A stretch of DNA of 48,949 nucleotides from the NCBI GenBank assembly GCA_043754535.1, contig JAYUUN010000040.1, positions 1-48,949 on the forward strand. Reading direction: 5' to 3'. The notes below the pieces were generated by a model. That model had not been told where the DNA came from. It did not search any database and worked only from the letters and a program-made list of their open reading frames with translations. The stretch is from Chloroflexota bacterium. GTDB lineage: Bacteria > Chloroflexota > Chloroflexia > QHBQ01. A program made the position numbers and the translations under genes. This document shows positions 4,481 to 48,949 of the stretch, in pieces; within the stretch, counting starts at the first letter, position 1; every line of letters starts with the position of its first letter.

Positions 4481-5968
4481 ATGCAGGCCAAGACGACAGC
4501 GGTAACGGTGGGCGAAGAAGGGCAAAGCAACGACCACCAGCGCAAATGGATCATTCTAGCAACGGTTGCCCTCGGTACCTTCATGGGGACGCTGGACAGC
4601 AGCATCGTCAACATCGCGCTGCCGACTATCCGCCACCAACTGAATGCGGGCGACTCGGTGCAATGGGTGGTACAAGTCTACTTGCTGACGATCACCAGCA
4701 CCTTGCTGATCATGGGTAGGCTGTCCGACCTGCTGGGACGGCGGCGGGTATACGTTGGTGGGTTCGCCCTCTTTACGGTCGCCTCGCTACTCTGCGGCTT
4801 CGCCTGGGACTTGTGGTCGCTGGTCGCCTTCCGTCTGCTGCAAGGGCTGGGCAGCGCGATGATCTTCGCAATTGGCCCGGCCATCATCGCCGACACCTTC
4901 ACGCCACGAGAGCGGGGTCAAGCCCTCGGCTGGGTGGGGACAGTGGTGGCGGCGGGTAGCTCGGCTGGGCCGGTGATCGGCGGTCTCCTGCTTGGTAGCT
5001 TCGGTTGGCCCGCTATCTTCTTCGTCAACGTGCCGGTGGGCATCTTCGCGGTCTGGAGGGCCTGGAAGATCATCCCGGAGGGGGGGACGCACCGTAGCCG
5101 CCGCTTCGACGCGACAGGGGCGGTCTTGTTTGCGCTGGGGGTGATCTGCCTGCTGCTGGCCCTCGACTTCGGTTCGCAGCGGGGCTGGGGCAGCAGCCTG
5201 GTGATCGGTCTGTTTGTTGGTGCGGCGGTGCTGCTCGGCAGCTTCTTTGCCTGGGAGGGGCGGGTGCGCGAGCCGATGCTGAACCTCAGTCTGTTCCGCA
5301 TCTGGCCTTACACGGCGGCTCTGGCAGCAGTGGGCCTCAGCTTCACCGCCAGTGCCGCCAACCTGTTCGTGCTGCCGTTCTACCTGCAAACCATCCTCGG
5401 CTACCCACCAGAGCAGGCAGGCTTCATCCTGCTAGCCGGGCCACTCGCCCTCTTGGTAGTATCGCCGCTCGGTGGACGGCTGGCCGACCGCTTCGGCGCA
5501 CGCTGGGTCGCCAGTGGTGGGTCGATCCTGGTCGCCATCGGCTACTTCCTGCTCGCTGGCCTACAAGCAAGCTGGGTCTGGCAGGATGTAGTCTGGCGGC
5601 TGGTTCTCTTGAGCGTCGGCTTCGGCCTGTTCCAGTCGCCCAACAATGCCTCGGCCCTCAACGCTGCGCCAGTTGCCGAACGTGGCATCGCCAGCAGCAT
5701 GATCCCCTTCATGCGTAACTTCGGCCTCGTGCTAGGCATAGCGGTAGGGGCAGCAGTCTGGTACAGCCAGCGGGCTGTCTACGCCAGTAGCCACGCTCTG
5801 CGCCCAGAGGATACTGCCGCGCAGATTGCAGGGCTGCAAATTGTCTACTATATGCTGACTGGCTTGCTGCTGCTCTCGGCTAGCATCAGCCTCTCACGCG
5901 GCAAGCTGCCCATGCAGGAGGAGCCACCGCTCGCAGTGGAGGGCCAGCCCGCCAGCTTCAGCCACTTA
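4481..5968 (+). CDS. MFS drug:H+ antiporter, DHA2 (EmrB/QacA) family
   Basis: LDSSIVNIALPTI, GRLSDLLGRRR, GPVIGG..WPAIFFVNVPVG; about 14 TM segments; AAGGAG RBS. End given at the in-frame TTA (5966-5968); the standard-code end is 6049, overlapping the ALDH gene by 81 bp. Confidence 0.9.
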
Positions 5969-8371
5969 CTACTCGCCGTAAGGTACCCAAATGTTCTTCA
6001 CCTGGGTCGCTTCGCGCAGGAACTCCTGGCCTTCAGCGTGGCTAGATAGCCAGTCGGTGGCCCGGCCCAGGCTTGTCCAGGTACGCTTCATGTTACCAAC
6101 GCTGGCTAGCTCCACCTGCTTGCTGCCCGCAGCGGTGCCAAAGTACCAAACGCCATCCACATCGTCATGCTCGGCCAGCACCTTCGCCAGCGGCTCGCGT
6201 GGGCCAGTCACAATGTTGACCACCCCAGCGGGCAGGTCGGAGGTGTCGAACACCTGGTAGAGGTCGGTGGCAGAGAGCGGGTGCAGCGGCGAAGGAACGA
6301 CCACCACCGTGTTGCCCATCGCAATTGCGGGGGCGACCAGGGAAACGAAGCCCAGTAGCGGCGCGTCGTCGGGACAAAGGATACCCAGCACCCCGACTGG
6401 CTCATTCATCGCCAGGGTGACATTGCGCGAGGGGGTGGAGTGTACGAGGCCGTCGTACTTGTCGGCCCAGGCTGCGTAGGTGAACAGGCGCGAGATTGCT
6501 GCCTCCACCTCTGCTACGCCGTCGCCGCCAGTCTGCTGGGCGAGGCGGGCAGCAAACTCGGCAGCGCGGACGGCTAGGTTCTCAGCGATGTAGTAGAGTA
6601 CCTGCGCCTTGTTGTGGCCGTAGGCCATTGCCCAGCCCTCAGCTGCGTGGGCCGCCTCAACCGCATTGCGGATGTCCTTGCGGTTGCCTTCGCCCACCAG
6701 CCCAATCTCGCGCCTCCCCGCCCCATAGATCGGCATTGAGTAGCCGCTATCGGGTCGGGCCTGCTTACCACCGATGTACATCTTCGGGGTGCGGTCGATC
6801 ACCGGCAAGGCTGAACGGCCACGCTCTGCTACCCTGCTCCCCCCCACGAGGTCAGCGGGAGAAGCGGGAGACTCGGCAAGGGCTGCTGGCTCTGCGCCAT
6901 TGTCCCGCAGCTTGAGGTACTCCCACAGCCCCTCCTTGCCGCCTTCACGCCCGTAGCCACTCTCACGGTAGCCGCCAAAGCCGCTGGCTGCGTCAAACTG
7001 GTTGGTGCAATTGACCCAGACGGTGCCAGCCTTGATCTGGCGGGCGATGTCCAGCGCGAGGTTGAGGTTGTCGCTCCAGACGCTGGCGGCCAGGCCGTAG
7101 CTGGTGTTGTTCGCCAGGGCGACCGCCTCGGCTGGGGTGCGGAAGCTCATGCTGACCAGCACCGGGCCGAAAATCTCGGTCTGCGCTATCATCGAGGCGG
7201 GCGACACGTCGGTTAGTAGCGTCGGCGGGTAGAAGCTGCCTTCAGTGGGACACGACCAGGAGGGCTGCCACAAGGTCGCGCCCGCAGCCACACCCTGCTG
7301 CACCAGCGCATCGATCTGCTCAAGCTGGCTGGGTGAGACTATCGCGCCAATATCCATTGCCTTGTCGAGCGGCTGACCGACCCGCAGCTTCTCCATGCGG
7401 GCGCGCAGCTTCGCCAGCAGCTTCTGCTCAACGCTCTCCTGCACCAGCAGCCGCGACCCCGCGCAGCAGACCTGCCCCTGGTTGAACCAGATCGCGTCCA
7501 CCACCCCCTCCACCACACTGTCCAGGTCGGCATCGGCGAAGACGACGAAGGGCGACTTACCGCCCAGTTCGAGCGACAGCCGCTTGCCAGTGCCAGCCGT
7601 CTGCTGCCGTAGGGTACGGCCCACCTCGGTCGAGCCAGTGAAGGCGATCTTGGCAACGTCGGGGTGTGCGACGATAGCTGCGCCCGCTGAACCAGCATCG
7701 CCAGTAATGATGTTGACCACGCCAGCAGGCAGGCCCACCTCGCGGCAAATCTCGGCGAAGGCCAGGGCGGTCAGTGGGGTGTAGCGGGCGGGCTTCAGCA
7801 CAACAGTATTGCCCATCGCCAGGGCGGGCGCGATCTTCCAGGCCATCATCATCAGCGGGAAGTTCCAGGGGATGATCTGCCCAACCACGCCGAGCGGGGC
7901 GTAGTCGCGCAGTTCGCTCTCCATCAATTGCGCCCAGCCCGCATAGTAATAGAAGTGGCGGGCAACCAGCGGCACATCAATGTCTCGCGTTTCGCGGATC
8001 GTCTTGCCGTTGTCCAGCGACTCTAGCACGGCTAGCAGGCGCGAGTGCTTCTGTATCTGGCGAGCCAGGGCGTACATCCAGCGGGCGCGGGCGTGGCCCG
8101 GCAAACTGCTCCAATCCTTGAAGGCAGCAGCGGCAGCAGCGACCGCTGCATCCACGTCGGCAGGGTTGGCCGCCGCGATCTTCGCCAGTGGCTTGCCGTT
8201 CGCGGGGTTGGTTGTCTCCAGGTACTTGCCACTCTGCGGCTGTACCCACTCGCCACCGTAGAACAACTCGAACTGGCCGCCATGCTCCTTCAGCCATTCC
8301 ATAGCCGGGTTAGCCGCCTCTGGGGCTGGGCCATATGCCATCGTCTCAAAGATTTCTGCCACGCTAGTCAT
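5969..8371 (-). CDS. Aldehyde dehydrogenase, ALDH16-like (full ALDH plus a second partial Rossmann-type domain)
   Basis: IIPWNFPL, AFTGSTEVG, LELGGKSP, GQVCCAGSRL (catalytic Cys), EIFGPV, then a repeated N-terminal-like domain; 800 aa; downstream of deoC. Confidence 0.93.
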   Translation of the reverse strand: MTSVAEIFETMAYGPAPEAANPAMEWLKEHGGQFELFYGGEWVQPQSGKYLETTNPANGKPLAKIAAANPADVDAAVAAAAAAFKDWSSLPGHARARWMYALARQIQKHSRLLAVLESLDNGKTIRETRDIDVPLVARHFYYYAGWAQLMESELRDYAPLGVVGQIIPWNFPLMMMAWKIAPALAMGNTVVLKPARYTPLTALAFAEICREVGLPAGVVNIITGDAGSAGAAIVAHPDVAKIAFTGSTEVGRTLRQQTAGTGKRLSLELGGKSPFVVFADADLDSVVEGVVDAIWFNQGQVCCAGSRLLVQESVEQKLLAKLRARMEKLRVGQPLDKAMDIGAIVSPSQLEQIDALVQQGVAAGATLWQPSWSCPTEGSFYPPTLLTDVSPASMIAQTEIFGPVLVSMSFRTPAEAVALANNTSYGLAASVWSDNLNLALDIARQIKAGTVWVNCTNQFDAASGFGGYRESGYGREGGKEGLWEYLKLRDNGAEPAALAESPASPADLVGGSRVAERGRSALPVIDRTPKMYIGGKQARPDSGYSMPIYGAGRREIGLVGEGNRKDIRNAVEAAHAAEGWAMAYGHNKAQVLYYIAENLAVRAAEFAARLAQQTGGDGVAEVEAAISRLFTYAAWADKYDGLVHSTPSRNVTLAMNEPVGVLGILCPDDAPLLGFVSLVAPAIAMGNTVVVVPSPLHPLSATDLYQVFDTSDLPAGVVNIVTGPREPLAKVLAEHDDVDGVWYFGTAAGSKQVELASVGNMKRTWTSLGRATDWLSSHAEGQEFLREATQVKNIWVPYGE

Positions 8372-25179: not shown

Positions 25180-27729
25180 TTGAAGCATCGCTTGTTCCTG
25201 CTCGTCCTCGTCGTCAGCCTGCTGCTCCCGACCCTCGCACAGGCGCAGAGCCAGCCAGCCCCCAGCGGCGGCACCTCCACCGCGACGGCCACCGCTGACC
25301 CTCCCAGCGCAACCCCCAGCCCAGCCACGTCCCTGACCGTCACTCCCACCCCGACCGCTACTGCTACCCTGACTGCAACTGCGACTGCGGCTGTGATTGC
25401 CACTGCCACCACCACCGCAACTGTGACTGCCACCGCGACTGCGACAACTGCCCCGCCGCCAACGGCTACGCCCGCCGCCAACCAGTATGACGTGGTGGTA
25501 GTGGGCGGTACCTCGGCGGGCGTGGCGGCTGCGGTCGCCGCAGCCCGGCTGGGGGCGCGGGTTGCCCTGGTCGAGGAGAGCGGCTGGCTGGGCGGCATGG
25601 TCAGTGCGGGCGGCCTCGGCGCAACCGACGGCAACCCGACGGCGATCAGCGGCCTGTTCGAGCAGTTTCGCCTGGCAGTGCGTGCCTACTACCGCAGCCA
25701 GCGCAACAGCGGCCAACTGCAATGCTACAGCCCGCCGCCGCTGCTCGTGGATACCAACTTCGAGCAGCCAACGGTGGCTGGGGCGATGCAGGCTAAAGCG
25801 GGCGGCGGCAGCTATTACAGCGGCCACTCGCTCTACACCTGGTACACCAACACCGCTACTACCCCGCCGACGCACGCCGCCTACCTGCAAGTCTACAACC
25901 TGGTCTGCAATCTTGCGAATGACTACCCCACTGACGGCTTCACCTACGAGCCACTGGTGGCCCAGAACCAGATGAGGCAACTGCTGCAAGGGCTGACCGT
26001 CACTCTGATGCTCAACACAGCTTACAGCGGGGTGATCACTGTGGGTAACAGCGTGCGTGGGGTCTACGTCCTCAGCGAGGGGCAGAGCAGTGCGCTCTAC
26101 GGCAAAGTGGTGATCGATGCGACCAGCCGCGGTGACGTGCTGGCCGACGCTGGCACCCGCTGGCAGGACTATGCCTTTGGCCGCGAACGTAGCAGCACCG
26201 ATAATACCGCCCCGCTCCCTTTGCGTCCACGCACCTTTGACGAACTGGACGCGGGCAAGACCTTCGTGCCGCCCCAGGTTGGCGAGTCGGTCGGTGACGG
26301 TGACTACGGGCTGCAAGCCTACAGCTACCTGATGACCCTCGTCTACCAGCCGAGCCGCAGTATGCCGCACCCCTTTGCCAGTATTGCCGATCCACAGGGG
26401 CGCACTGGCGACCAGAACAGCCTCTATCAGGCCTATGTGCAGCAGTTTAGCACGACCAATGGCGCAAACAGCATCGGCTACTTCAACGACATCTGGTTCA
26501 ACTGGCGGCGGTTGCTGCCGAACAACAAGATCGAACTGAACTATGCCGACATCCCTGGCGGCAACTACCTCTCGGTCGAGCGCGAGGACAACTACCTGAC
26601 CAACCCCGCCAGCCGCTCGTCTATCGAGCAGCAGCACCGCCTCTACGCCCTCAGCTTTGTCTACTGGGCGCGCCAGCGGGTGCCTGCCGCCCAGGGCTGG
26701 CTGCCTACCAACGAGTACGGCACAGCAGACGGCCTGCCACCCTTGCTCTACATCCGCGAGGGTAATCGAATGATCGGTGAATACACCCTCAGCGAGCGCG
26801 ATTACGCCTGCTTCAGCCAGGGGTGCAGCACGGTCAGTCGCTACTTTACCGACAGCATCGCCACCGGCCAGTACGCCTTGGACTCGCATACTGTGCGCTT
26901 GATCGCTGACGGCAGCGGCGGGCAGTTCGCAGATGGCAATATGTGGTTGGGCAACAGCCAGCCCTACCAGGTGCCATACCGCGCAATCGTACCGCTCAGG
27001 TTGGATGGTCTGTTGGTGCCGCTGGCGGCCTCGGCCACCCACCTCGGCTTTGGCGCGTTGCGGATGGAGCCAGTGCGGGCGGCAATGGGTCAGGCGGCGG
27101 GGGTCGCGGCGGCGCAAGCGGCGGCAGCCAACATCCAGCCACGGGCAGTCAACCTGCGGGCGGTGCAGCGCGAACTGATCCGCCAGAAGGCAGCTACCTA
27201 CACCTACATTGATGTGCCAAATAGTTACTGGGCCTGGACTGCGATCAGTTGGCTCAATGCGCGTGGGGTAGTGCAGGGAACTGGGCCGAACCTGTTTGCA
27301 CCCAACGCCCAGGTGCGGCGGGCTGAGCTAGCCAAGATGCTGACCCAGGCGCAGGGCTGGCCGTTGCTCAACCCTGCTACCGCCACCTTCCGCGATGTGT
27401 CAGCCGGCAACTTTCTCTACCGCTACGTGGAGACTGCCTACGCTCATGGGGTGATCAGCGGCTACAGCGACGGCAACTTCCAGCCCTACGCCAGCGTAAC
27501 GCGGGAGCAGATGGCGAAGATGCTAGCCGCTGCGGCTGGCTTCGGCCCCCAACAGCCAGCCAACCCCAGCTTCAGCGACGTGTCGCCCAGCAATATCTTC
27601 TACGGCTGGGTAGAGGCCGCCCGACTGCACGGCCTGATGCAAGGGACGAGCGCGACCACCTTCTCGCCGCGCGGCACTCTGACGCGGGCGCAGGCGGCCC
27701 AGGCAGTCTTCAACCTGCTAGGCGAGTTA
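25180..27729 (+). CDS. Secreted SLH-anchored FAD-dependent oxidoreductase (FAD_oxidored family)
   Basis: Signal peptide, Thr-rich linker, YDVVVVGGTSAGVAAAVAAA, IDATSRGD, YIREGNRM, YQVPYRAIVP, SATHLGFGALRMEP, three SLH repeats. End given at TTA 27727-27729; the standard-code end is 27825. Confidence 0.9.
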
Positions 27730-29295
27730 GCCCTTAGCCAACTCGCGGCGGAACAGCAGCCAGTTGATCACGAAGAAGATCAGCCCCATCGTTGTCAGTG
27801 CGCCGATCACGTAGTCGGTCGGTAGCTGGCCGCGCAGCATGACCTGCTGGAAGCCCTGGATGCCGTGAGTGATCGGCAGCCCCTGCGCTCCATACTGCAC
27901 GTACTGGTTGAAGCTGCTGAGCGAGAGGAAGAAGCCGCTGAAGAAGACAGAGGTGAGCAGCACCAGCATCGACAACTGCACCGCCTGCGACTCGGTCTGC
28001 GAGATCAGGCTGATGAAGAAGCCCAGGCCCAGGCTGGCGAAGACCAGCGCGAGGGCAGTCAGGCTGAACCAGAGGGGGTCGCCCTTGAACGGCACGCCCA
28101 GCAGCGGGCTAACTAGCGCAGCGACCAGGGCAGCAGCGACCACCGCCACGAACAGGATGTAGGCAACGTACTTGCTGACCAGGATTTCGGTGGCGCGGAT
28201 CGGGGCGACGCGGAACAGTTCGAGCGTGCCAATTGTCCGCTCACGCACTAGCGAGAGGGCCGCGAAGGTGACAGCGATGTGTTGGAGCAGCAAGGCGAGG
28301 ACGGCAGGGGTGTAGTAGTTGATGAAGTTAATCTCAACGCCGTTGGGGTTGTCCTCCTTGCTGGCCTCATTCTTGACGATGGCGCGGAAGGGGGAGACGA
28401 GGACACCAGGGGCGATGTTGGTGATCTGCCCAGTCGTCGCTTCCAGGGTAGCGAGGTCTTCATCTACCTGCTTGAGGCGTTGCACCTGCTGCTCCCGACT
28501 CGCCTGGCCGCGCAGGGCATCGCTGCGGATCGCTTGCACGTTGTCGTTCAGGCGGCGGATGGCAGTCTGCGCCTTGTTGATGCTGTCTACCTTCTGCTGC
28601 CCTGCTGGGCTGATCGGTAGTGTTGCTAGCTGGTCGTTGTTCACGGCACCGCCTGCGACGGCGAGAACTACCAGGACGGAGTTGCTGCTGGTCAGCAGGT
28701 CGCCACTCTCCTTCGTCACCGCCTGCACGTCGTTGGCCTGCAAGCCCACCTGCAAGCGGTTGACCGCCTGGCGCAACTGGCCCACCTGCCCCTGCAAGTC
28801 GGTGAGGCCCGCCTGCCCCTGCTTAAAGCCTGCTTCGAGGATGCGCTTGTTCAGTTCATTAGAATAGGCATAGGTAAGGAAGTAGACGATGTTGATCTTC
28901 ACCGGGTCAATCTCATTGACGTTGAGCCGCAATTCGGCTTGCTTGCCGCCCAGGATGTCGCTGTAGGGGTCGGTAGGGATCACCGCCACCGCATCTACGC
29001 GGCGGTCATGTAGTTCACTCATCGCCCGGCCCAGGTCTTCCGTCACTTCACGCACGTCCAGTTGCTCAACGGCAAACTGCTTCTTGATCTCCGCGCTGCG
29101 AGACTGCGTCCCTGGCGGCCCCACGATGATCGTAGTCAGGCTCTGCTGCTTGCTGACATAGCCGATACCGAAGATAAAGAGGATGAGGAAGGGGCCAAGT
29201 ACCAGGGTAAAGACTAGGCGCAACTGCCGCCGCACCTCGGCTACCTCCTTGCCCAAAAACGCGCTGAGGCGCACCAGCATCTTGACTAGCGGCAT
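27727..29295 (-). CDS. ABC-2 type exporter permease with a large extracytoplasmic helical domain
   Basis: FLGKEVAEVRR, SLVRERTIGTLELFRVAP, 1+5 TM topology. Confidence 0.9.
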   Translation of the reverse strand: MPLVKMLVRLSAFLGKEVAEVRRQLRLVFTLVLGPFLILFIFGIGYVSKQQSLTTIIVGPPGTQSRSAEIKKQFAVEQLDVREVTEDLGRAMSELHDRRVDAVAVIPTDPYSDILGGKQAELRLNVNEIDPVKINIVYFLTYAYSNELNKRILEAGFKQGQAGLTDLQGQVGQLRQAVNRLQVGLQANDVQAVTKESGDLLTSSNSVLVVLAVAGGAVNNDQLATLPISPAGQQKVDSINKAQTAIRRLNDNVQAIRSDALRGQASREQQVQRLKQVDEDLATLEATTGQITNIAPGVLVSPFRAIVKNEASKEDNPNGVEINFINYYTPAVLALLLQHIAVTFAALSLVRERTIGTLELFRVAPIRATEILVSKYVAYILFVAVVAAALVAALVSPLLGVPFKGDPLWFSLTALALVFASLGLGFFISLISQTESQAVQLSMLVLLTSVFFSGFFLSLSSFNQYVQYGAQGLPITHGIQGFQQVMLRGQLPTDYVIGALTTMGLIFFVINWLLFRRELAKG

Positions 29296-30541: not shown

Positions 30542-31825
30542 TCAGGCTGTAGCCTCTAGTTGCTCCAGCGGCACCGCCTCGCGGATCAGGTGGCTGACCG
30601 TTGCCAGCCCGGCAAAGATGGTGATCCAGACCGCCAGCACCGCGAATGTCCCTTGTGCGCCGATGTGTTCCAGCAACCAGCCTGCCGCCACTGCCGCGAT
30701 AGGCCGAATGCCCCAGGCCACCAGGCGGAACGCGCTGTTCACCCGCCCCTGCAACTGGTCGGGGATCAGGGCCAGCCGGTAGGGATACTGGTTGAGGTCG
30801 TAGAATGTGGTGGTGCTAGCCCAGCTTAGGGCCACCAGGCCCAGTAGCCAGAGGTTGGGAGCCAGGGCGTAGAGTACCATACACGCCACCTCCGCCCACA
30901 AGCTACCAATCATGATCCGCCCATAACTGATCCGCAGCCGTAGCCGCTCGTTGAGCAGCGACACGAGTAGCCCTCCTACTGCCCACATACTTAGCAGTAG
31001 CCCCGTAGTCGGCTCGTCCGCCCCAAGCTCGCGCGCCCGCACGACCAGCAGCAGCGCAATGCAGCCGATGATGCCGTTCACCCCCAGGTTGAGCAGGGCC
31101 ATCATCTTGACGAAAGGCCGCTGCCAAATCCAGGCCATGCCTTCCTTGATCTCTGTCCAGAGGTGGTGGTCGCTCTTGGCCCGTTCGCCCTGGAAGTCGG
31201 TCTTGATGAAGGTAAGGGAGACGACCGAGGCAGCGTATGAGATCGCATCGAAGACGAAGGGGAAGGTGCGGCCCACGCTCTTGAACAGGAAGCCACCGAG
31301 CGGCGCGCCCAGCAGTTCGACTACACTGCCAGCCGCGTAGAACTGGCTGTTGGCTGCGGCCAACTGCTCCTTAGTCACCACGCGAGGGATGGCTGCCGTC
31401 TCTGCCGCGACGAAGAAGACGAAGCAGCAACCATCTATCAGCGCGTTGGCATAGATCAGCCAGACGCTCAGCCCACCGAGGGCCAGGGCGAGGGGGATGC
31501 TTGCCATGTTCGCAGCCCGGATCATATCGCAGACGATCAGCACCCGCTTGCGATCCCAGCGGTCTACCAACGCGCCAGCGGGCAGGCTGAGGAGGATGTA
31601 GGGTACCCAGACCAATCCCCCGGCAACCCCTGCCGCCTGTGGCGAGTTGGTCAGGGCCAGGATCAGCAGGGTGAGGGCAAAACCCGACATACTACTGCCC
31701 AGTTGCGAGACCACCTGCCCGCTCCAGAGCAGGATGAAGTCGCGGTTGCGCCAGAGCGATGCTCGTTTTGCTGCCGCTCCCTTCGCCTCCTCTCCTACTG
31801 CTGCCCCCTCTTTCAGTTGCGCCAT
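30542..31825 (-). CDS. MFS transporter (MefA/DHA3-like)
   Basis: LWRNRDFILLWSGQ, GALVDRWDRKR, IPDQLQGRVNS; about 12 TM. Confidence 0.9.
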   Translation of the reverse strand: MAQLKEGAAVGEEAKGAAAKRASLWRNRDFILLWSGQVVSQLGSSMSGFALTLLILALTNSPQAAGVAGGLVWVPYILLSLPAGALVDRWDRKRVLIVCDMIRAANMASIPLALALGGLSVWLIYANALIDGCCFVFFVAAETAAIPRVVTKEQLAAANSQFYAAGSVVELLGAPLGGFLFKSVGRTFPFVFDAISYAASVVSLTFIKTDFQGERAKSDHHLWTEIKEGMAWIWQRPFVKMMALLNLGVNGIIGCIALLLVVRARELGADEPTTGLLLSMWAVGGLLVSLLNERLRLRISYGRIMIGSLWAEVACMVLYALAPNLWLLGLVALSWASTTTFYDLNQYPYRLALIPDQLQGRVNSAFRLVAWGIRPIAAVAAGWLLEHIGAQGTFAVLAVWITIFAGLATVSHLIREAVPLEQLEATA

Positions 31826-31957
31826 GCTGACCCTCCCGTTCATGCTGCCTCATTATGCCCCACTGGGCTGACTCTGTAAATACCACTTCTGCCCGATCTT
31901 TCTACCAAGCTGCCTATTAGACCTACATTAGACCAGCCGCGCCCACTGGTTCTACCC

Positions 31958-39013: not shown

Positions 39014-39170
39014 TTCGCCTACCACATTTGGGTCTGGCTGTGCGCCATACAGCCCAACCACCCCATCCCCCTCCCTGCGCCAGATGTAAGATTTGTAGTA
39101 TAATATGGCAGTGCTTCGTAGCCGCCGCAGAACCGCGACGGGGTATCGTGCAGAGAAAGGGTTGAGAGAA

Positions 39171-40670
39171 ATGGAAACAGTAGAGAGCAAGCCCCGTTTG
39201 GGAACGTTGGTGGCGATCAGCTTCGGTTTGTTGCTGCTGCTGGGCAGCCTGTTCGTTGCAGGATCAGCCCTCGCTGGGCAGAGCAGCGGCCACCAGCACC
39301 ACGCAGGCGCGCAACCCCCAGCCAGCTTCCTCGATGCCAGCCACATTGGCCCCAGCAGCGTGATCACGGTGGAGATGGGCGACAACTTCTTCGCCCCCAC
39401 CGTAGTAACGATCACCGCTGGCGACACTGTGGTTTGGCACAATGGCGGTAACTTCTTCCACAATGTGCGCGCAGATAGCAGCACCGGGCCGCTTGGTTAC
39501 ACCCAGCCGCAGGACTTCCTGACCGACTTTGCCGCCCCGGAGTCGAATGTTGGGCAGCCGCATAGCGTGCAGCACACCTTCTACCGCCCTGGTCGCTACT
39601 ACTACTGGTGCGACCCACACGCCCCTGACATGGCTGGCATTGTAGATGTGCTGCCGCAGGTGGTGCCAGTAGCAATAGGCAACAACTTCTTCAGCCCCAA
39701 TGTGGTCACGATTACCGCTGGTACCGTGGTCTCGTGGACAAACCCGACCAGCAACGCCCGCTCTCACACCGTCACCTCCACCACCCCGCCTGGTATCCTC
39801 AACTCTGGCACACTGGCGGCAGGTAATGTTTACACCCACGCCTTTGCTACTGCTGGCACCTATCAATACCAATGTGACTTCCATGCTGGCATGGCTGGCA
39901 CCGTAGTGGTGATCGACCCACCCACGCCCACGCCAACCCCTGGCCCAACCAACACCAGGGCCGCTAGTAGTCCAACTGCTACTACTGCTGCTGCTACCCC
40001 CACGGCCACCGCCGCCGCTGGCAGTGCGACAGCTACCCCTGGCGGCGCGACAGCTACCCCCTGTACCGTCAGCTTCACCGACGTGCCTAGTGGCTATATT
40101 TTCTACAACGAAATCCAGTACCTCGCCTGTCGTGGTGTCCTCAGCGGGTACCCCAACCCGAACCCGCCCGGCGGCAACAGCTTCCTGCCAAACAACAACA
40201 CGGCGCGAGGCCAGTTCGCCAAAATCGCCGCCCTCGGCTTTGGCTTGCCCGCCTTCACCCCAACTGGCAGCCAGACCTTCGTAGATGTTGCCCCCGGTAG
40301 CATCTTCTACGGCTACGTGGAGACTGCCGCTCATGCCGGGGCGGTCAACGGCCTGGCGGCCAGTCAGTGTGCCGCCCTCGGCACCCCCGGCAACTGCTAC
40401 GGCCCCAACGTGCTGATCAGCCGCGTACAGGTCGCCCTGATCGTGCAGCGCGTGCGCCAGTACGCCGTCGTCACCCCAACCCAGCCGACCTTCCGTGATT
40501 TGGCGGCCAACTCCTTTGGCTACGCAGCGGTTGAGACGCTGGCGAACCGGGGGATCATCAACGGGGCGGCTTGCAGCAGTGGCGGCGGCACTTGCTTCCG
40601 GCCTAATGATAATGTCAAGCGCGGTGAATTGTCCAAGATCGTCAAGCGAGCGATTGACAGCGCACCCTGA
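39171..40670 (+). CDS. SLH-anchored double cupredoxin (plastocyanin/azurin-like), paralog 1
   Basis: Signal peptide; FHNV..YWCDPHAPDM and SHTV..YQCDFHAGM type-1 Cu sites; Thr/Ala linker; three SLH repeats; ends KRAIDSAP-TGA. Confidence 0.9.
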   Translation: METVESKPRLGTLVAISFGLLLLLGSLFVAGSALAGQSSGHQHHAGAQPPASFLDASHIGPSSVITVEMGDNFFAPTVVTITAGDTVVWHNGGNFFHNVRADSSTGPLGYTQPQDFLTDFAAPESNVGQPHSVQHTFYRPGRYYYWCDPHAPDMAGIVDVLPQVVPVAIGNNFFSPNVVTITAGTVVSWTNPTSNARSHTVTSTTPPGILNSGTLAAGNVYTHAFATAGTYQYQCDFHAGMAGTVVVIDPPTPTPTPGPTNTRAASSPTATTAAATPTATAAAGSATATPGGATATPCTVSFTDVPSGYIFYNEIQYLACRGVLSGYPNPNPPGGNSFLPNNNTARGQFAKIAALGFGLPAFTPTGSQTFVDVAPGSIFYGYVETAAHAGAVNGLAASQCAALGTPGNCYGPNVLISRVQVALIVQRVRQYAVVTPTQPTFRDLAANSFGYAAVETLANRGIINGAACSSGGGTCFRPNDNVKRGELSKIVKRAIDSAP

Positions 40671-40768
40671 GTGCGCCCACCCACTTGCTAGCAATGGTAT
40701 AATGAGTAGGAGCGGCGGACAAGCTGCTCCTGCTCTTTGCTGTCCTGGATCAAGAAGGAGAGACGCTG

Positions 40769-42379
40769 ATGCGAGATGAGAAGCGTTTGCCCATCCTACC
40801 GCTGTTGGCCCTTGCCCTCGGCCTTACCATGCTGGTTAGTGGGCTGCTCATTGCTGGCTCAACCCTGGCGGCCCCTGCAAACCACAGTCTGCACCAGCCG
40901 CAGGGGGGTCTACCCTGCGACCAACGCCAGTTTGATGTGGATGCCAGCAACCACCCAGCCAACCAATCGATCACCGCTACCGTCGCGATCCAGAACTTCT
41001 GCTTTACCACCCGTGTGCTAACGATCACGGTTGGTGATACCGCCGCCTGGGACAACTACGACCAGATCGGCCACAATGCTTCAACGCTGAACAGCGGCAG
41101 CATCCCGCCAGAACCATTCCAGACCGCCTATGCCATCTCACCGACTAATCGCATTGTTAGCCGCACCTTCACCCTGGCCGGGGTCTACGACTACCTCTGC
41201 GACCCGCACCCGTTCATGACTGCGCGGATTGTGGTGCTGCCTGCGCCAGTGGCAATAAACATCCAGGGCTTCACCTTTGCCCCCCAGGTGCTGACCGTTA
41301 CGGTTGGCACGAGGGTGCAGTGGACGAACCGTGATGCTGCCAGCCACACCGTCAACTCGACCAGCCCACCGGGGGTGCTGAACTCTGGCAATCTTGCCCA
41401 GAACGCGATCTACAGCTACACATTCAGCACGGCTGGCACCTACGATTACCAGTGCAATATCCACACCGGCATGACTGGTCGTGTAGTCGTGCTTGGCCTG
41501 CCGCCCACCACAACCAGCACACCGAGTGCCATCCCCAGCCCGACTGCAACCACCCCCGGCCCACCAACGCGCACCTATACGCCCACGCCAACCTTCTCAG
41601 CCACCACCTGCCCGCCCTCGGTCTGCTGTGCTGGCGACAGCAACGACCCCCAGTGTACGACCACGCCCGGCCCACCAACGCGCACTTATACACCCACGCC
41701 GACCTTCTCAGCCACCACCTGCCCGCCCTCGGTCTGCTGTGCTGGCGATAGCAACCACCTCCAGTGTACGACCACGCCCGGCCCGCCAACGCGCACTTAC
41801 ACGCCCACGCCCACATCCACCCCTTGCCAACGCAGCTTCCCTGACGTGCCTGGCAGCTACATCTTCTACGACGACATCATCTTCCTCGCCTGTCGTGGGG
41901 TGATCAATGGCTATGCGGACGGTAACTTCAGGCCAAACGGCAACACAACGCGGGGTGAAGTGACGAAAATCATCGTCAGCGGCTTTGGCATCCCGCTGGT
42001 AACGCCGCCCGCCACGCCGCGCTTCGTGGACGTGCCAGCCAATCACCCCTTCTACCTCTACGTTGAGACGCTGGTTGGCAGGCAAGTGGTCAGCGGCTTC
42101 CCCGACGGCAACTTCCGCCCAAATGGGCTGGTGACGCGGGCGCAGCTAGCCAAAATCGTGGTAGGGGCTGGGAGCTACACCCTGGCAACCCCCACTGTAC
42201 CGACCTTCAGCGACGTGCCGAGCAGCAACGTCTTCTGGCAATACATCGAAACGCTGAACAGCAGGGCGATCATCAGCGGTGCGGCTTGTGGCAGCGGCCT
42301 CTGCTATCGCCCCAACGACAGCATCAAGCGCGGTGAACTCAGCAAGGTTGTGCATAGGGCGATAGACTCGACCCCTTTA
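40769..42379 (+). CDS. SLH-anchored double cupredoxin, paralog 2
   Basis: GHNA..YLCDPHPFM and SHTV..YQCNIHTGM; Cys-containing tandem linker; three SLH repeats; HRAIDSTP-TTA aligns with the paralog's stop. The standard-code end is 42532. Confidence 0.9.
41549..41815 (+). repeat. 111-bp (37-aa) tandem repeat, about 2.4 copies
   Basis: TTPGPPTRTYTPTPTFSATTCPPSVCCAGDSNxxQCT units start at 41549, 41660 and 41771. Confidence 0.93.
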
Positions 42380-42419
42380 CGCCCAGCAGTGGTAGCCAGC
42401 TTCAGTTCAATGGGAGACG

Positions 42420-42451
42420 AAAAGACCCACTTCGTGAGCAGTGGGTCTTTT
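42420..42451. terminator. Bidirectional intrinsic terminator
   Basis: AAAAGACCCACT-TCGTGAGC-AGTGGGTCTTTT: perfect 12-bp inverted repeat with A and T tracts, between convergent genes. Confidence 0.85.
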
Positions 42452-42461
42452 GGCCTGGAGT

Positions 42462-43184
42462 CTATTGTGGCTGGGTGGCTTGCTGCTCCGCCCGATAGTC
42501 GGCGAAGCGGTAGCCGAGGCCGCGTTCGTTGAAGATGTACTTCGGGTGGGCCGGGTCGATCTCGATCTTCTGGCGCAGGTAGGTAATGTAGAGGCGCAGC
42601 AACTGGGTGTCGTCGCGGTACTCGCGGCCCCAAACGCGGGTCAGCAGAGCCTCGTGGGTCAGCAGCCGTCCAGCATTGTTGACTAGCTGAGACAGCAGCC
42701 GGTACTCGGTGGGTCGCAGCTTCACCTCGTTGCCAGCGACGATCACCTCGCGCTTATCGAAGTCAATCGTCAGCCGCTCGTCGATCTTGACCGTCTCGCT
42801 GCTGCTCACTGTGGGGGCCATCGCCGCCCGCCGCAGGGCCGCCTTGATGCGACTGAGCAGCTCGCGGTGGCTGAAGGGTTTAGCAACATAGTCGTCGGCC
42901 CCCAGTTCAAGGCCGCGCACCCGATCTGCCTCGCTGGCCTGTACTGTCAGCATGATCACTGGCGTGTTGGTCGCCTGCCGCAGTTGCTTGAGCGTCTCAA
43001 AGCCGTCCATGCCAGGCATCATCACATCCAGCAGGATCAGGTCAGGGATCGCCTCGCGGGTTTTAGTGATCGCCTCGCGGCCAGTACTGGCGGTGATCAC
43101 CCCATATTCGGCCTGTTCCAGGATCGAGGTGAGCAGGTTGATCAAGTGTGGTTCGTCGTCTACGACGAGGATCGTCTGGGCCAC
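42462..43184 (-). CDS. OmpR/KdpE-family response regulator
   Basis: ILVVDDE, LLDVMMPGMDG, GADDYVAKPF, winged helix (YLRQKIE..GLGYRF). Confidence 0.95.
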   Translation of the reverse strand: MAQTILVVDDEPHLINLLTSILEQAEYGVITASTGREAITKTREAIPDLILLDVMMPGMDGFETLKQLRQATNTPVIMLTVQASEADRVRGLELGADDYVAKPFSHRELLSRIKAALRRAAMAPTVSSSETVKIDERLTIDFDKREVIVAGNEVKLRPTEYRLLSQLVNNAGRLLTHEALLTRVWGREYRDDTQLLRLYITYLRQKIEIDPAHPKYIFNERGLGYRFADYRAEQQATQPQ

Positions 43185-43234: not shown

Positions 43235-45034
43235 TCAGTCCTCCTTGCTGACAGGTAGGGTGAAAGCAAATCTTGCGCCGCCGCTAGCCGCTTCTTCCAC
43301 CCAGATGCTACCACCGAGGGCGTTGATGATCTCGCGGGCGATGTAGAGGCCCAAACCCACCCCCTTCGCCTCGCGTACCATGCGCCCCTCCAGGCGGGTG
43401 AAGGGGGTGAAGATGCGCTCTCGCTCCTCCGCTGGCACGCCTTCACCCTCGTCGCTGACGCTGAACAGGACGTGACTAGCCCGCCGTTCAGCGGCCAGGG
43501 TGATCTCGCCCGCCCCATACTTCAGCGAGTTCTCCACCAGGTTGGTCAACACCTGCTCAATCCGCTGCTCATCGCCAATCACCACGGGCAGTTGCTCCTC
43601 GCCAGCCACTTCATCGCCCTTTGGTGGGTAAGGGGCAACGGTCAGCCTGCGCTCTGGCCGCTCGGCCACGAGGACACGCAGGCGGGTGGCGACCCGGTTG
43701 AGCAGGCTGTAGGGGTCGAGTGGCTCGCGGTTGATGTCCAGCTTACCCGCTTGCAAGCGAGTGACGGTCATCAAGTTCTCCACCATCTTGCTCAAGCGGT
43801 CGCTCTCCTGACTAACGATCTCCAACTGCTGGCGGGCGGTTGCGTTCTCCTCGCCGATGGTGTCGCCCAGCAGCCCTGCATAGCCCTTGATCACCGCAAT
43901 CGGGGTTTGCAACTCGTGGCTGACGACGGAGAGGAAGGTGGCCTGCATGGCCTCTGCTTCCTTGCGGGCGCGGATATCGTGCAGGGTGAGCGTAGCACCC
44001 AGTACGGCACCGTCGTTGCCGCGGATCAGCCCGCAACTGGCTTCCACTGGCACCCGCCGCCCGTCGTGGGCCAAGAGGGTGAGTTCCTGCACGGCGACAT
44101 AGCTGCTGTCGTTCAGGGTAGCGGTTAGCTGCTCGGTCAGCCAGCCGTCACCGACGTGCTGGCCGCGAATGGCTGGCAGGTTGCTGCTCTGCCCGCTGTC
44201 CCAGCGCGGCAAGTCGAAGGATGGTGAGTAGTTGCTGCCACTCTGCTGGCTGTTGGCTGCGGTGTGGAAGTCAAAGAGTTGCTCGGCATCCTGCCCCCAG
44301 GCCAGCGGCCCCGTCCAGCCGGTCAGCCGTTCGAGGGCGCGATTGAGGCCGATGATGCGCCGCTGCGGGTCTACCACCAGGATCGCCTCGCTGGTTTGCT
44401 GGATCACCTCCTCCAACCAGTGCTTCTCGTTGAGGATACGCTGCAAGAGGCGAGTATTCTGGGCGACGATGTCCACCTGATCTACAATAATCTGGTAGAT
44501 GTCGGGGCGGTTGAAGATATCCTCGCGGTCGCCACCCTCGCCTGGTTCGAGCAGGCAGAGCAGGCCCACCATACCGTCGCCGCCGCGTAGGGGGATGGCA
44601 ACCAGGTGGAGGTCGTGGCCCTTGAGCCGGGCTACGCCGCTAACTGCCTCCGCTGGGCTAAGGGTGAGGCCAAGCGTATGCTGGGCCTGCTGTTCGCCTG
44701 CCTCGCCTTGCAACTCTGGCATACTGCGGAGGCTGGCGGCCAGGCTGCGTGCCTCTCCCTCGCCCAACCCGACGCTGGCGGTGTAGAATGGACGATCCCC
44801 CTCGTAGAGAGCGACCATCCCCGCCTGGCTGCCAGCCGCATGAACCACCTTGTTGATCATCGCCTCCAGCATACTGCGCGGGTCGGGCGTGCTACCGTCC
44901 GCGTTGACTGTCTGGTTGGTATGCACCTCGTCGGGGTCGCGGGCAGGCTGGCTAACCCGCTGTGAGGATGTCTCGCTACTTGGTTGGGCCGCCGCTTCGC
45001 TGATATTGCACTGGAACTTCTTCTTCTTGAACAT
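43235..45034 (-). CDS. GAF/PAS sensor histidine kinase
   Basis: PAS segment (EAILVVD..NRALERLTGW), SHELQTPI, NLVENSLKY, DEGEG, GVGLGL. Confidence 0.92.
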   Translation of the reverse strand: MFKKKKFQCNISEAAAQPSSETSSQRVSQPARDPDEVHTNQTVNADGSTPDPRSMLEAMINKVVHAAGSQAGMVALYEGDRPFYTASVGLGEGEARSLAASLRSMPELQGEAGEQQAQHTLGLTLSPAEAVSGVARLKGHDLHLVAIPLRGGDGMVGLLCLLEPGEGGDREDIFNRPDIYQIIVDQVDIVAQNTRLLQRILNEKHWLEEVIQQTSEAILVVDPQRRIIGLNRALERLTGWTGPLAWGQDAEQLFDFHTAANSQQSGSNYSPSFDLPRWDSGQSSNLPAIRGQHVGDGWLTEQLTATLNDSSYVAVQELTLLAHDGRRVPVEASCGLIRGNDGAVLGATLTLHDIRARKEAEAMQATFLSVVSHELQTPIAVIKGYAGLLGDTIGEENATARQQLEIVSQESDRLSKMVENLMTVTRLQAGKLDINREPLDPYSLLNRVATRLRVLVAERPERRLTVAPYPPKGDEVAGEEQLPVVIGDEQRIEQVLTNLVENSLKYGAGEITLAAERRASHVLFSVSDEGEGVPAEERERIFTPFTRLEGRMVREAKGVGLGLYIAREIINALGGSIWVEEAASGGARFAFTLPVSKED

Positions 45035-47036: not shown

Positions 47037-48242
47037 ATGATGGATGTTTTGCTCAACAGCGGCTCGCGCCGCCTCAACAGCGGCTCGCGCCGCCTCTACT
47101 TCGACCACGCCGCGACCACGCCCCTCGCCCCAGAGGTGCTAGCCGCCATGCTACCCTACTTCAATGCCAGCTATGGCAACCCCAGCAGCATCCACGCTGA
47201 GGGGCGGCTGGCACACGAAGGGTTGGAAGCGGCGCGGCGGCAGGTGGCAGCGGTGCTGCATTGCCGCCCGCAGGAAGTGATCTTTACCAGCGGCGGCACA
47301 GAGAGCGACAACCTCGCGCTCAAGGGGGTGGCTCTAGCTCACGAAGGTGGTCACATCATCACCAGCGCAGCAGAGCATCACGCGGTGCTGCACAGCGCAG
47401 AGTACCTTGCCCACCTCGGCTTCAAGGTGACATATCTACTAGTAGACAGATTTGGCATGGTCAGCCCCGACGATGTGGCAGCAGCGATCCAGCCCGACAC
47501 GCGGCTGATCAGCATCATGTACGCTAACAACGAGGTGGGGACGATCAACCCAATCCCGCAGATTGCAGCGGTGGCGCAGCAGGCTGCTGTGCCGTTCCAC
47601 AGCGATGCAGTGCAGGCGGGTGGCAGCCTCGACCTTGATGTGGAGCGGCTGGGGGTAGACTTGCTCTCGCTCTCGGCCCACAAGTTCTACGGGCCAAAGG
47701 GGGTGGGTGTGCTGTACGTCCGCGGTGGCAACCACTTGCTCTACCAACAGAGTGGCGGCTCGCAGGAGAGCAAGCGGCGGGCTGGCACGGAGAATGTGGC
47801 AGGGATCGTCGGCCTCGCCACCGCCCTAACCATCGCCGAGAGCAAGCGGGAGGTTGAAGCGGCCCGTCTGCTTGGCTTGCGCGAGCGGCTAATCGGGGGA
47901 GTGCTGAGCAGCATCCCCGACGCGATCCTCAACGGCCACCCTGTGGAGCGGCTACCTGGCAATGCCAACTTCTGCCTGCCCGACGTGGAGGCAGAGACGC
48001 TGTTGCTACGCCTCGATCTGCTGGGCATCGCGGCTAGCTCGGCCTCGGCTTGCACCAGCGGGGCGGTCGAACCAAGCCATGTGCTGCACGCAATGGGTAT
48101 CCCCGACGCACTGGCAGTGGGTAGCCTGCGCTTGAGCCTCGGCGCAAGCAACACGGAGGCCGACATAGACTATGTTCTCGCCAAACTGCCCGCCGTGGTC
48201 AACAGGCTACAGAGCCTGAAGTTGCACGAACGAAGTAGCTAA
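47037..48242 (+). CDS. iscS: Cysteine desulfurase (IscS/NifS group I)
   Basis: YFDHAATTP, GNPSSIH, FTSGGTESDN, HSDAVQ, SAHKFYGPKG (PLP Lys), RAGTEN, SASACTSG. Confidence 0.93.
   Translation: MMDVLLNSGSRRLNSGSRRLYFDHAATTPLAPEVLAAMLPYFNASYGNPSSIHAEGRLAHEGLEAARRQVAAVLHCRPQEVIFTSGGTESDNLALKGVALAHEGGHIITSAAEHHAVLHSAEYLAHLGFKVTYLLVDRFGMVSPDDVAAAIQPDTRLISIMYANNEVGTINPIPQIAAVAQQAAVPFHSDAVQAGGSLDLDVERLGVDLLSLSAHKFYGPKGVGVLYVRGGNHLLYQQSGGSQESKRRAGTENVAGIVGLATALTIAESKREVEAARLLGLRERLIGGVLSSIPDAILNGHPVERLPGNANFCLPDVEAETLLLRLDLLGIAASSASACTSGAVEPSHVLHAMGIPDALAVGSLRLSLGASNTEADIDYVLAKLPAVVNRLQSLKLHERSS
47052..47093 (+). repeat. Perfect 21-bp tandem duplication (LNSGSRR x2)
   Basis: CTCAACAGCGGCTCGCGCCGC twice, head to tail. 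Confidence 0.95.
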
Positions 48243-48246
48243 CCAA

Positions 48247-48783
48247 TAACTCCAACGTAGGCGTGTGCTGGCCTACTTCGTTGTGGATCAACTTGACACT
48301 GTGTGGTAGCAGCGGCATGATCGCGCCAATGCACTCGCGCACTGCGTTCGGGCTGCCGGGCAGGTTGACGATCAACGTGCCACCGCGCTGCACTGCCACG
48401 CTGCGCGAAAGATAGCTGAGGATGGTGTACTGCGCCGTTCCCACCCGCATCAGTTCGCCGTAGCCGGGTACGATACGCTGGCCGACTGCCAGCGTTGCTT
48501 CGGGGGTCACATCGCGGGCGGTCAGGCCGGTGCCACCCGTAGTGAGGATCAGGTCTAGTTGTAGATCGTCGGCCCAGCGGATCAGGGTCGCCTCGATCTG
48601 TGCCTGCTCGTCTGGCACAACGGCGTACTGGGCGATAACCGCACCCGCCAGCCCCGCTACGATCTCGCGCTGGGCCTGCTGACCGCTAAGGTCATCGTTG
48701 TTTGGGTCGCTATGCCTGCTGTCGCTGACCGTCAACACGCCCACCTTGATCTGCTCGTCTCCACCATGCTCGTGCTTCATCAC
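48247..48783 (-). CDS. mog: Molybdopterin adenylyltransferase MogA/MoaB
   Basis: VLTVSD, DLSG, VVPDE, TTGGTGLTARDVTPEAT, SRSVA, NLPGSP. End given at TTA (48249-48247); the standard-code end is 48199, overlapping iscS. Confidence 0.92.
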
Positions 48784-48806
48784 ATCTCCTATAGTTGGGT
48801 TGGGGG

Positions 48807-48949
48807 CTAGGCTTTCTCGCCCAGCCGCCGTTCGGTGCCTTTGAGCAGGCGATCAATGTTGTCTTTGTGGGCGGCAATGACGAAGATGGGCAAGATGATG
48901 AAGAACAGGTAGAGCCAGTTGGCCTGTTGCAACAAGACCGCGATCAAGA
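48807..48949 (-). CDS. plsY: Glycerol-3-phosphate acyltransferase PlsY, C-terminal fragment
   Basis: Manual translation ..IFVIAAHKDNIDRLLKGTERRLGEKA* matches the PlsY C-terminal HxxNIxRLxxGxE motif. Confidence 0.85.
   Translation of the reverse strand, partial: LIAVLLQQANWLYLFFIILPIFVIAAHKDNIDRLLKGTERRLGEKA

Follow-up and report, generated by a model that had tools for sequence, protein, structure and literature searches.

A genetic code in which UUA is a stop codon is listed as NCBI table 23 for Thraustochytrium mitochondria, and in Streptomyces the codon TTA is translated by a dedicated tRNA (bldA) inside the coding regions of regulatory genes. According to PMC12574857, UUA serves as a stop codon in peDinoflagellate plastids and in the mitochondria of labyrinthuleans (Thraustochytrium). 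This is attributed there to substitution of a serine in the SPF loop of release factor 2 (RF2), the organellar "Ser204" being replaced by Ala, Gly or Cys. The same paper describes both UUA and UUG as stop codons in the mitochondria of the green-algal Marsupiomonadales and Pseudoscourfieldia, by way of a modified mtRF1a. Large screens of the Codetta type cannot detect new stop codons, as their authors state (PMC9825746, PMC8629427). In a literature search with subscription journals outside its scope, no bacterial or phage UUA stop was found; UUA was a stop only in organelles, and sense-to-stop reassignment was known only from mitochondria and plastids. Here we describe a TTA codon at positions 42377–42379 of a 48,949-nt contig from a Chloroflexota bacterium (the whole contig is called the window below). 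It lies in the second of two tandem genes, paralogs 1 and 2, both of which are predicted from sequence to encode secreted cupredoxin-SLH proteins.

By computation, coding ends at TTA both at paralog 2 and genome-wide. TTA closes about one gene in eleven and is unused inside genes in this genome and its four known relatives, where it is most likely a fourth stop codon. With good confidence we propose that the TTA at 42377–42379 is a functional gene end, that UUA, formerly a leucine codon, serves this family as a fourth stop, with which about 9% of its genes would end, and that the transcript of paralog 2 ends at a shared hairpin 40 nt further on. The source genome (G000), of which the window is contig C40, is a metagenome-assembled draft of 3.87 Mb in 132 contigs with a G+C content (GC) of 61%. 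The family as used here comprises five drafts of 3.9–5.2 Mb that are 83–89% complete: G000 (89%) and its sister species G001 (87%) in one genus, and G002, G003 and G004 in a sister genus.

Paralog 1 ends ..KRAIDSAP-TGA, and paralog 2 reads ..HRAIDSTP-TTA-RPAVV.., the TTA being codon 537 with 42378 as its middle base and C as the next base. The most likely form of paralog 2 therefore spans 40769–42379 on the plus strand, with 536 codons and the TTA as terminator, as judged from Pfam and from comparison with paralogues and with G001. Under the standard bacterial code (table 11) the frame stays open for 50 codons more, up to a TGA at 42530–42532. This tail (42380–42532) traverses a perfect inverted repeat at 42420–42451 and enters by 71 nt the convergent gene of an OmpR-type response regulator identified with Pfam (42462–43184, minus strand, TAG stop at 42462–42464). 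It is most likely non-coding in view of the hairpin, the overlap and the indels described below.

The TTA is unchanged in contigs (rather than raw reads) of the independent metagenome runs X5, X6, X8 and X10, which come from four studies. In G001 the orthologue of paralog 2, with 90% protein identity, has TTA at the identical codon. The three codons before it differ between G000 and G001 (TCG/GCA, ACC/ACG and CCT/CCC), and on its 3′ side the two species are separated by several indels of lengths not divisible by three. A further comparison is offered by the SLH domains of the source genome, where 78 matches could be aligned with the final SLH domain of paralog 2. The first terminator is the codon aligned to the TTA of paralog 2 in 28 of these 78 and falls within −3 to +4 codons of it in 46; at least two of these paralogs themselves end in TTA at the exact aligned codon. 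Because of the run contigs, the conservation in G001, the downstream indels, the retained hairpin and the SLH paralogues, we conclude that the coding sequence of paralog 2 ends at the TTA.

The repeat at 42420–42451 has a G+C-rich, perfect 12-bp stem and an 8-nt loop and is flanked by AAAA and TTTT. It folds with −25.7 kcal/mol (z = −2.85), and none of 200 shuffled sequences was as stable. It begins 40 nt 3′ of the TTA and 10 nt 3′ of the TAG of the response regulator. G001 retains the hairpin and its TTTT tail despite altered stem bases, by compensatory changes. The fold and this comparison suggest a probable bidirectional intrinsic terminator common to both convergent genes, with a T-run of just 4 bases; a consensus terminator scan did not flag the plus strand of the hairpin. 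Run X8 is represented by a contig that departs from the window in and beside the loop (42432–42453) by three substitutions and by a 1-nt deletion offset by a 1-nt insertion, with an additional substitution directly past the stem (42453); the stem core is intact, and we take this to be a strain variant.

An earlier, sequence-only reading of the window had noted the IDSAP-TGA and IDSTP-TTA ends, which both the sequence and the translations confirm, and had taken the TTA for the real end of paralog 2. The latter claim is borne out by the conservation in G001 and by the non-coding-like evolution downstream with its compensated hairpin; the alignment of orthologues that it proposed as a check gave TTA at the same codon and frame-breaking indels after it. 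As for its perfect bidirectional terminator ahead of the first standard stop, the perfect hairpin and the stop at 42530–42532 stand, and the terminator role is a likely one only.

The distribution of TTA across the source genome was followed in 2827 open reading frames (ORFs) of at least 200 aa with coding-like GC by codon position. By decile of ORF length, TTA counts were 177, 48, 16, 8, 23, 12, 12, 15, 40 and 207. In the last decile TTA thus rises ~17-fold, other rare codons by up to ~2.3-fold (AGA), and CTA, ATA, AAA and most of the 19 tabulated codons are flat along the ORFs. In the central 80% of the ORFs, TTA occurs 174 times in frame compared with 5288 and 2960 times in the other two frames, which makes in-frame TTA 17–30 times rarer than out-of-frame TTA. 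A TTA in the second half was found in 246 of the ORFs (8.7%). When these TTAs are counted as ends, the use of the four stops among long ORFs is TAG 1253, TGA 781, TAA 530 and TTA 246. TAG is the commonest stop of this genome (44–49% of long ORFs).

The sequence that follows these TTAs resembles that after a stop. The table-11 stop comes a median of 18 codons after the TTA; past a standard stop, the frame reaches another stop after 18–25 codons. In GC at codon positions 1/2/3, the post-TTA tails (.66/.56/.63) are similar to non-coding DNA; the values are.68/.48/.72 directly ahead of the TTA and.60/.58/.59 past standard stops. The base after TTA is G in 47% and T in 26% of cases, which is like TGA, a stop read by RF2 only, and unlike TAG (C in 51%). 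A +1 frameshift onto TAG or TAA was considered as an explanation and rejected: TTAG or TTAA make up 58% of TTA ends (128/220), so that 42% give no stop after the shift, and paralog 2 itself reads TTAC.

In-frame TTAs far from ORF ends were examined separately, as those at least 120 codons from both ends of the ORF. There are 43 such mid-ORF TTAs in 37 ORFs, and the 23 ORFs with Pfam matches (E ≤ 1e-5) hold 27 of them. By chance, 14.6 of the 27 should fall within a Pfam domain; in fact one does (P ~4e-10), and the remaining 26 are outside all matched stretches. The genes on the two sides of these are unrelated, for example peptide deformylase and endo/exonuclease-phosphatase, thiolase and hexapeptide transferase, AsnC and LysE, a kinase-like (APH) domain and RNase PH, or GT2 and a cytosine methylase (Dcm). 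A Shine-Dalgarno-like motif and a start codon follow most mid-ORF TTAs, often only a few codons on. The 26 mid-ORF TTAs outside domains are junctions between two real genes.

Orthologues in related genomes allowed the ends to be compared directly. ORFs from pieces of the relatives' sequence were aligned to all ORFs of the source genome at ≥40% identity, and pairs were kept if both first terminators fell within −5 to +12 codons of the alignment end. Among 141 pairs between G002 and G000, the G000 gene ends in TTA in 14, and in 12 of these the TTA is opposite TAA, TAG or TGA in G002. The reverse comparison gave the same numbers, with 12 of 14 TTA ends of G002 opposite a standard stop in G000. 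In pairs with the outgroups, TGA is opposite a TTA of G000 in 3 of 29 (1/22 for G006 and 2/7 for G009). The ends of an ABC permease illustrate the pattern: ..GIAKTGVK-TTA in G000, ..SGLKG-TAG in G002 and ..SGIRG-TGA in G009. Past the alignment end, the frame in G000 runs on for a median of 35 codons if the gene is TTA-ended, compared with 2 if it has a standard end. Within the alignments, the TTAs of the outgroups G006 and G009 are at conserved Leu/Ile/Val positions, and those of G000 and G002 are confined to Gly/Val ORFs of low complexity, which resemble artefacts of antisense reading.

The same TTA pattern is present in all five family genomes. Outside the family, TTA usage was sampled in six Chloroflexota genomes with 77–200 kb of sequence each. 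In G009, G195 and G193 (GC 60–61%), TTA makes up 1.6–2.6 per 1000 codons and is roughly even along genes; it is also flat in G006 (GC 71%), at 0.46 per 1000. TTA is thus an ordinary codon for leucine in these four, unmistakably so in the first three. In G254, G315 and G283, which have GC of 70–72% and a Gln-bearing RF2 (see below), TTAs are too few for the pattern to be judged. The claim of the sequence-only reading that paralog 2 is one case of a genome-wide TTA stop is thus supported by the in-frame depletion, the pile-up at 3′ ends, the orthologues and the gene junctions.

Which factor reads UUA was considered next to the release-factor sequences. RF1 and RF2 are the only release factors found in the five family genomes, and the PF00472 profile detected neither an extra release factor nor an ArfB-like gene in any of them. 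The recognition region of the family RF1 (PxT..RIHTST) is canonical. The family RF2 reads G-Q-H-R-M-V-R-I-S-P-Y-D-S-Q-H-R-R-Q-T-S-F. In the comparison, only RF2s of the family have the first Gln and the Met of G-Q-H-R-M-V-R, just upstream of the SPF loop; at the position of this Met, 42 of 42 RF2s from elsewhere have Leu. Of the two factors, RF2 is the likelier reader of UUA. It accepts only A at the third position, and leucine is still often encoded by UUG in this genome (15 per 1000); if RF1 were relaxed at position 2, it would read UUG as a stop too.

Leucine tRNAs were searched for with aragorn and a tRNA-Leu covariance model. The isoacceptors found in G000 are CAA, CAG, GAG and UAG; neither in G000 nor in G001 did the search give one with anticodon UAA. 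In contrast, tRNA-Leu(UAA) was present in all five outgroup genomes searched. It is also present in the sister genus, in G002 (L125, contig C96), G003 (L130, C600) and G004 (L131, C292). These copies have an acceptor stem unlike that of all outgroup copies, and a conserved C31.A39 mismatch leaves a 4-bp anticodon stem. The orthologues of the genes that flank this tRNA locus lie 1.5 kb apart on one contig of G000, with no tRNA or remnant between them. The tallies of tRNAs and release factors take in the unpublished genomes G007, G012 and G015, and leaving these out lowers the outgroup counts by three with the rest unchanged. Among the aragorn predictions was a "tRNA-Pyl(CUA)" at C31:4032–4124 with a mismatched acceptor stem, just upstream of a CRISPR (clustered regularly interspaced short palindromic repeat) array, which is probably a false positive.

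From these observations a sequence of steps can be suggested. RF2 would carry out termination at UUA, and the family substitutions just upstream of its SPF loop may widen tolerance at the second codon position. The genus of G000 and G001 would then have lost tRNA-Leu(UAA), of which the sister genus keeps a divergent copy. At paralog 2, the transcript would end at the hairpin common to the convergent genes. Carried to its full extent, this would be a four-stop code in a free-living bacterial family with UUA read by an adapted RF2, in which the two genera would represent successive stages (RF2 competing with tRNA-Leu(UAA), and the tRNA gone) and the family would supply the cellular hosts that explain TTA-stop phages. 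We offer this complete version tentatively, as a plausible account that we would not yet bet on. If true, termination could take over a sense codon even in a complex cellular genome, and the family would provide two natural stages for comparison, with and without the cognate tRNA. A TTA-stop code may also hinder incoming genes, the sole TTA inside a domain being that of a transposase.

Compared with the UUA-stop organelles described in PMC12574857, the family shows the same change from leucine to stop at the same codon, which is likewise missing from conserved positions and found opposite the stops of homologues. An RF2-type factor is the proposed reader in both, and UUG remains a sense codon. 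Unlike those small genomes, the one studied here is a 3.9-Mb draft of an uncultured, presumably free-living bacterium with ~250 TTA-ended long ORFs; its RF2 keeps the serine (SPY) and has its family-specific changes a few residues upstream, and the sister genus retains tRNA-Leu(UAA). The mitochondria of Marsupiomonadales and Pseudoscourfieldia share the leucine-to-stop change, there with loss of the cognate tRNA. In contrast to these, where by the same account UUA and UUG are both stops and the modified factor is an RF1, the family uses TTG as a major leucine codon and has a canonical RF1.

Several observations weigh against UUA being a fourth stop codon read by an adapted RF2. The SPF-loop serine is kept in the family RF2 (R-I-S-P-Y-D), aligned to Ser204 of PDB chain 9fy1_8. 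The change of RRHTSF to RRQTSF together with SPF to SPY, which had been a candidate cause because it looked clade-specific among 30 relatives, was refuted phylum-wide: a pattern search found the His-to-Gln change in 51 of 401 Chloroflexota genomes, and TTA is an ordinary codon in G195 (Gln) and G193 (SPY and Gln). The conserved His in question stacks on the second stop-codon base in RF2–ribosome structures. The tRNA-Leu(UAA) of the sister genus, whose anticodon stem shows a compensatory change, appears to be functional, so UUA may be ambiguous there; as this genus has the same TTA pattern, loss of the tRNA is not the primary cause. Failure to find tRNA-Leu(UAA) is also no proof of its loss in G000, a draft that lacks some other tRNAs too, and in G001 another leucine tRNA is missing as well, which marks that set as clearly incomplete. 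The ORF set was obtained with a crude composition filter instead of a gene caller and includes some spurious antisense ORFs with TTAs. Finally, the one mid-ORF TTA within a Pfam domain is at residue 128 of a DDE transposase (L193, G000:C81:11776–12552; match 35–209); this may be a recently arrived insertion sequence, which the TTA-stop code would truncate.

The alternative that survives best, which we consider improbable but worth taking seriously, is that UUA is unassigned. Without a cognate tRNA, ribosomes would stall and the peptide would be freed by rescue through transfer-messenger RNA (tmRNA) or otherwise, or else by an unadapted release factor acting weakly on UUA as a near-cognate codon. 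The missing tRNA in G000 and G001 fits this, as do the presence of tmRNA in G000, the fact that no single tested RF2 substitution is diagnostic, and a backup standard stop no more than two codons on in 15.4% of TTA-ended genes compared with 7.5–12.2% of standard-ended ones. However, the ~9% of genes that end in this way include those for peptide deformylase, an isocitrate/isopropylmalate dehydrogenase-family protein, RuvC and thiolase. Tagging by tmRNA (trans-translation) sends products to degradation, and TTA-ended genes such as that of peptide deformylase therefore count against tmRNA rescue. Rescue by ArfB is likewise disfavoured by the absence of a detected ArfB-like gene in the five genomes. 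Moreover, the sister genus, with its tRNA-Leu(UAA), has the same share of TTA ends, so that termination must outcompete decoding there. As TTA ends are as many in the sister genus despite the cognate tRNA, we take termination at UUA to be active and no mere stall.

It is far less probable that TTA still encodes leucine and is just very infrequent, as in Streptomyces, and that paralog 2 carries a 51-residue extension (LRPAVVASF..RVR). Paralog 2 does have an open table-11 frame to 42532, TTA is generally rare in high-GC genomes, and this bacterium resembles Streptomyces with bldA in its high GC and very few TTA codons. However, at 61% GC the source genome uses the A-ending CTA at 10.7 and TTG at 15.4 per 1000 codons and TTA at 0.42 per 1000, at ORF ends. 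The tail would cross the hairpin, overlap the convergent gene and be broken in frame by indels in G001; the 28 SLH matches stop at the exact codon, and orthologues have standard stops opposite TTA. Unlike the bldA-dependent TTAs of Streptomyces, those of this genome mark where genes end or adjoin, and the searches of G000 and G001 revealed no tRNA-Leu(UAA) in their genus. The CTA frequency is itself unusually high for a leucine codon in a genome of 61% GC. That the TTA is a TAA misread in sequencing or assembly, or that paralog 2 alone has lost its stop by mutation, can practically be set aside. Although TAA and TTA are one base apart and the genome is a metagenome draft in 132 contigs, the TTA recurs in another species and in the contigs of the four runs, each from a different study, and the pattern in five family genomes.

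UUA as a fourth stop codon would have consequences for annotation, as table 11 applied to family genomes leads to false C-terminal extensions, false gene fusions and chimeras. A 1573-aa GT-C/GH35 ORF (L177, G000:C1:32852–37573, minus strand) has its only TTA at residue 784, followed by ..FSEATP-M.., and its GH35 Pfam match starts at residue 801, 17 residues past the TTA with an ATG between; it most likely represents two adjacent genes split by a TTA stop and no fusion. At least a dozen more table-11 "fusion" ORFs combine unrelated genes on the two sides of a TTA (L178, L181, L182, L184, L186, L189, L194, L204, L206, L208, L209 and L212). In one of these ORFs, L194 (G000:C81:29237–32800), residues 574–1182 comprise a complete tyrosyl-tRNA synthetase and a B3/4 domain in one frame. 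Between the two (residues 728–822) there is no stop of either kind, standard or TTA, and this part may be a genuine fusion.

The family is also a candidate explanation for TTA-stop phages, with no link found in the CRISPR matches tried. Four CRISPR arrays with 37-nt repeats and ~61 spacers are present in the source genome (C27:54–1866, C50:43117–44846, C62:32746–33666 and C31:4287–5055), and a k-mer scan alone gave a fifth, shorter repeat cluster at C112:8435–8761. Two whole arrays matched nothing among GenBank phages, and 3 of the ~61 spacers were without an exact match in viral_contigs.

Other long ORFs of the window also contain 3′-proximal in-frame TTAs, at 27727–27729, 5966–5968, 31853–31855 and 48247–48249, in the ORFs 25180–27825 (plus), 4481–6049 (plus), 31241–31879 (plus) and 48199–48852 (minus), respectively. 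The first occupies the same three bases as the TAA that ends a convergent ORF on the opposite strand (27727–29295), and the ORF at 31241–31879 overlaps a longer opposite-strand ORF (30542–31843) and may be spurious.

The surroundings of the site are completed by paralog 1 (39105–40670, plus strand), with two cupredoxin domains and SLH domains (Pfam Copper-bind, Cupredoxin_1 and SLH). It is followed on the same strand by a terminator-like hairpin at 40704–40735 with 13 pairs and a T-rich tail, found by the consensus scan. Upstream of the response regulator lies a gene for a PAS-HisKA-HATPase sensor kinase (43235–45034, minus strand; Pfam). For the gene with the TTA, a cupredoxin-SLH cell-surface protein by its domains, the Pfam scores of 66.1 bits for Copper-bind, 32.1 for Cupredoxin_1 and 113.9 for SLH are all above the curated cut-offs. 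Paralog 2 has an N-terminus that looks like a signal peptide in the translation, then two cupredoxin domains, a Pro/Thr- and Cys-rich repeat linker and the SLH domains. Its linker (41530–41810), between the cupredoxin and SLH parts, contains Pro/Thr-rich repeats, of which two are almost complete, with four cysteines (..TTPGPPTRTYTPTPTFSATTCPPSVCCAGDSN..QCT), and the third is partial, and that of paralog 1 is instead plain Pro/Thr/Ala.

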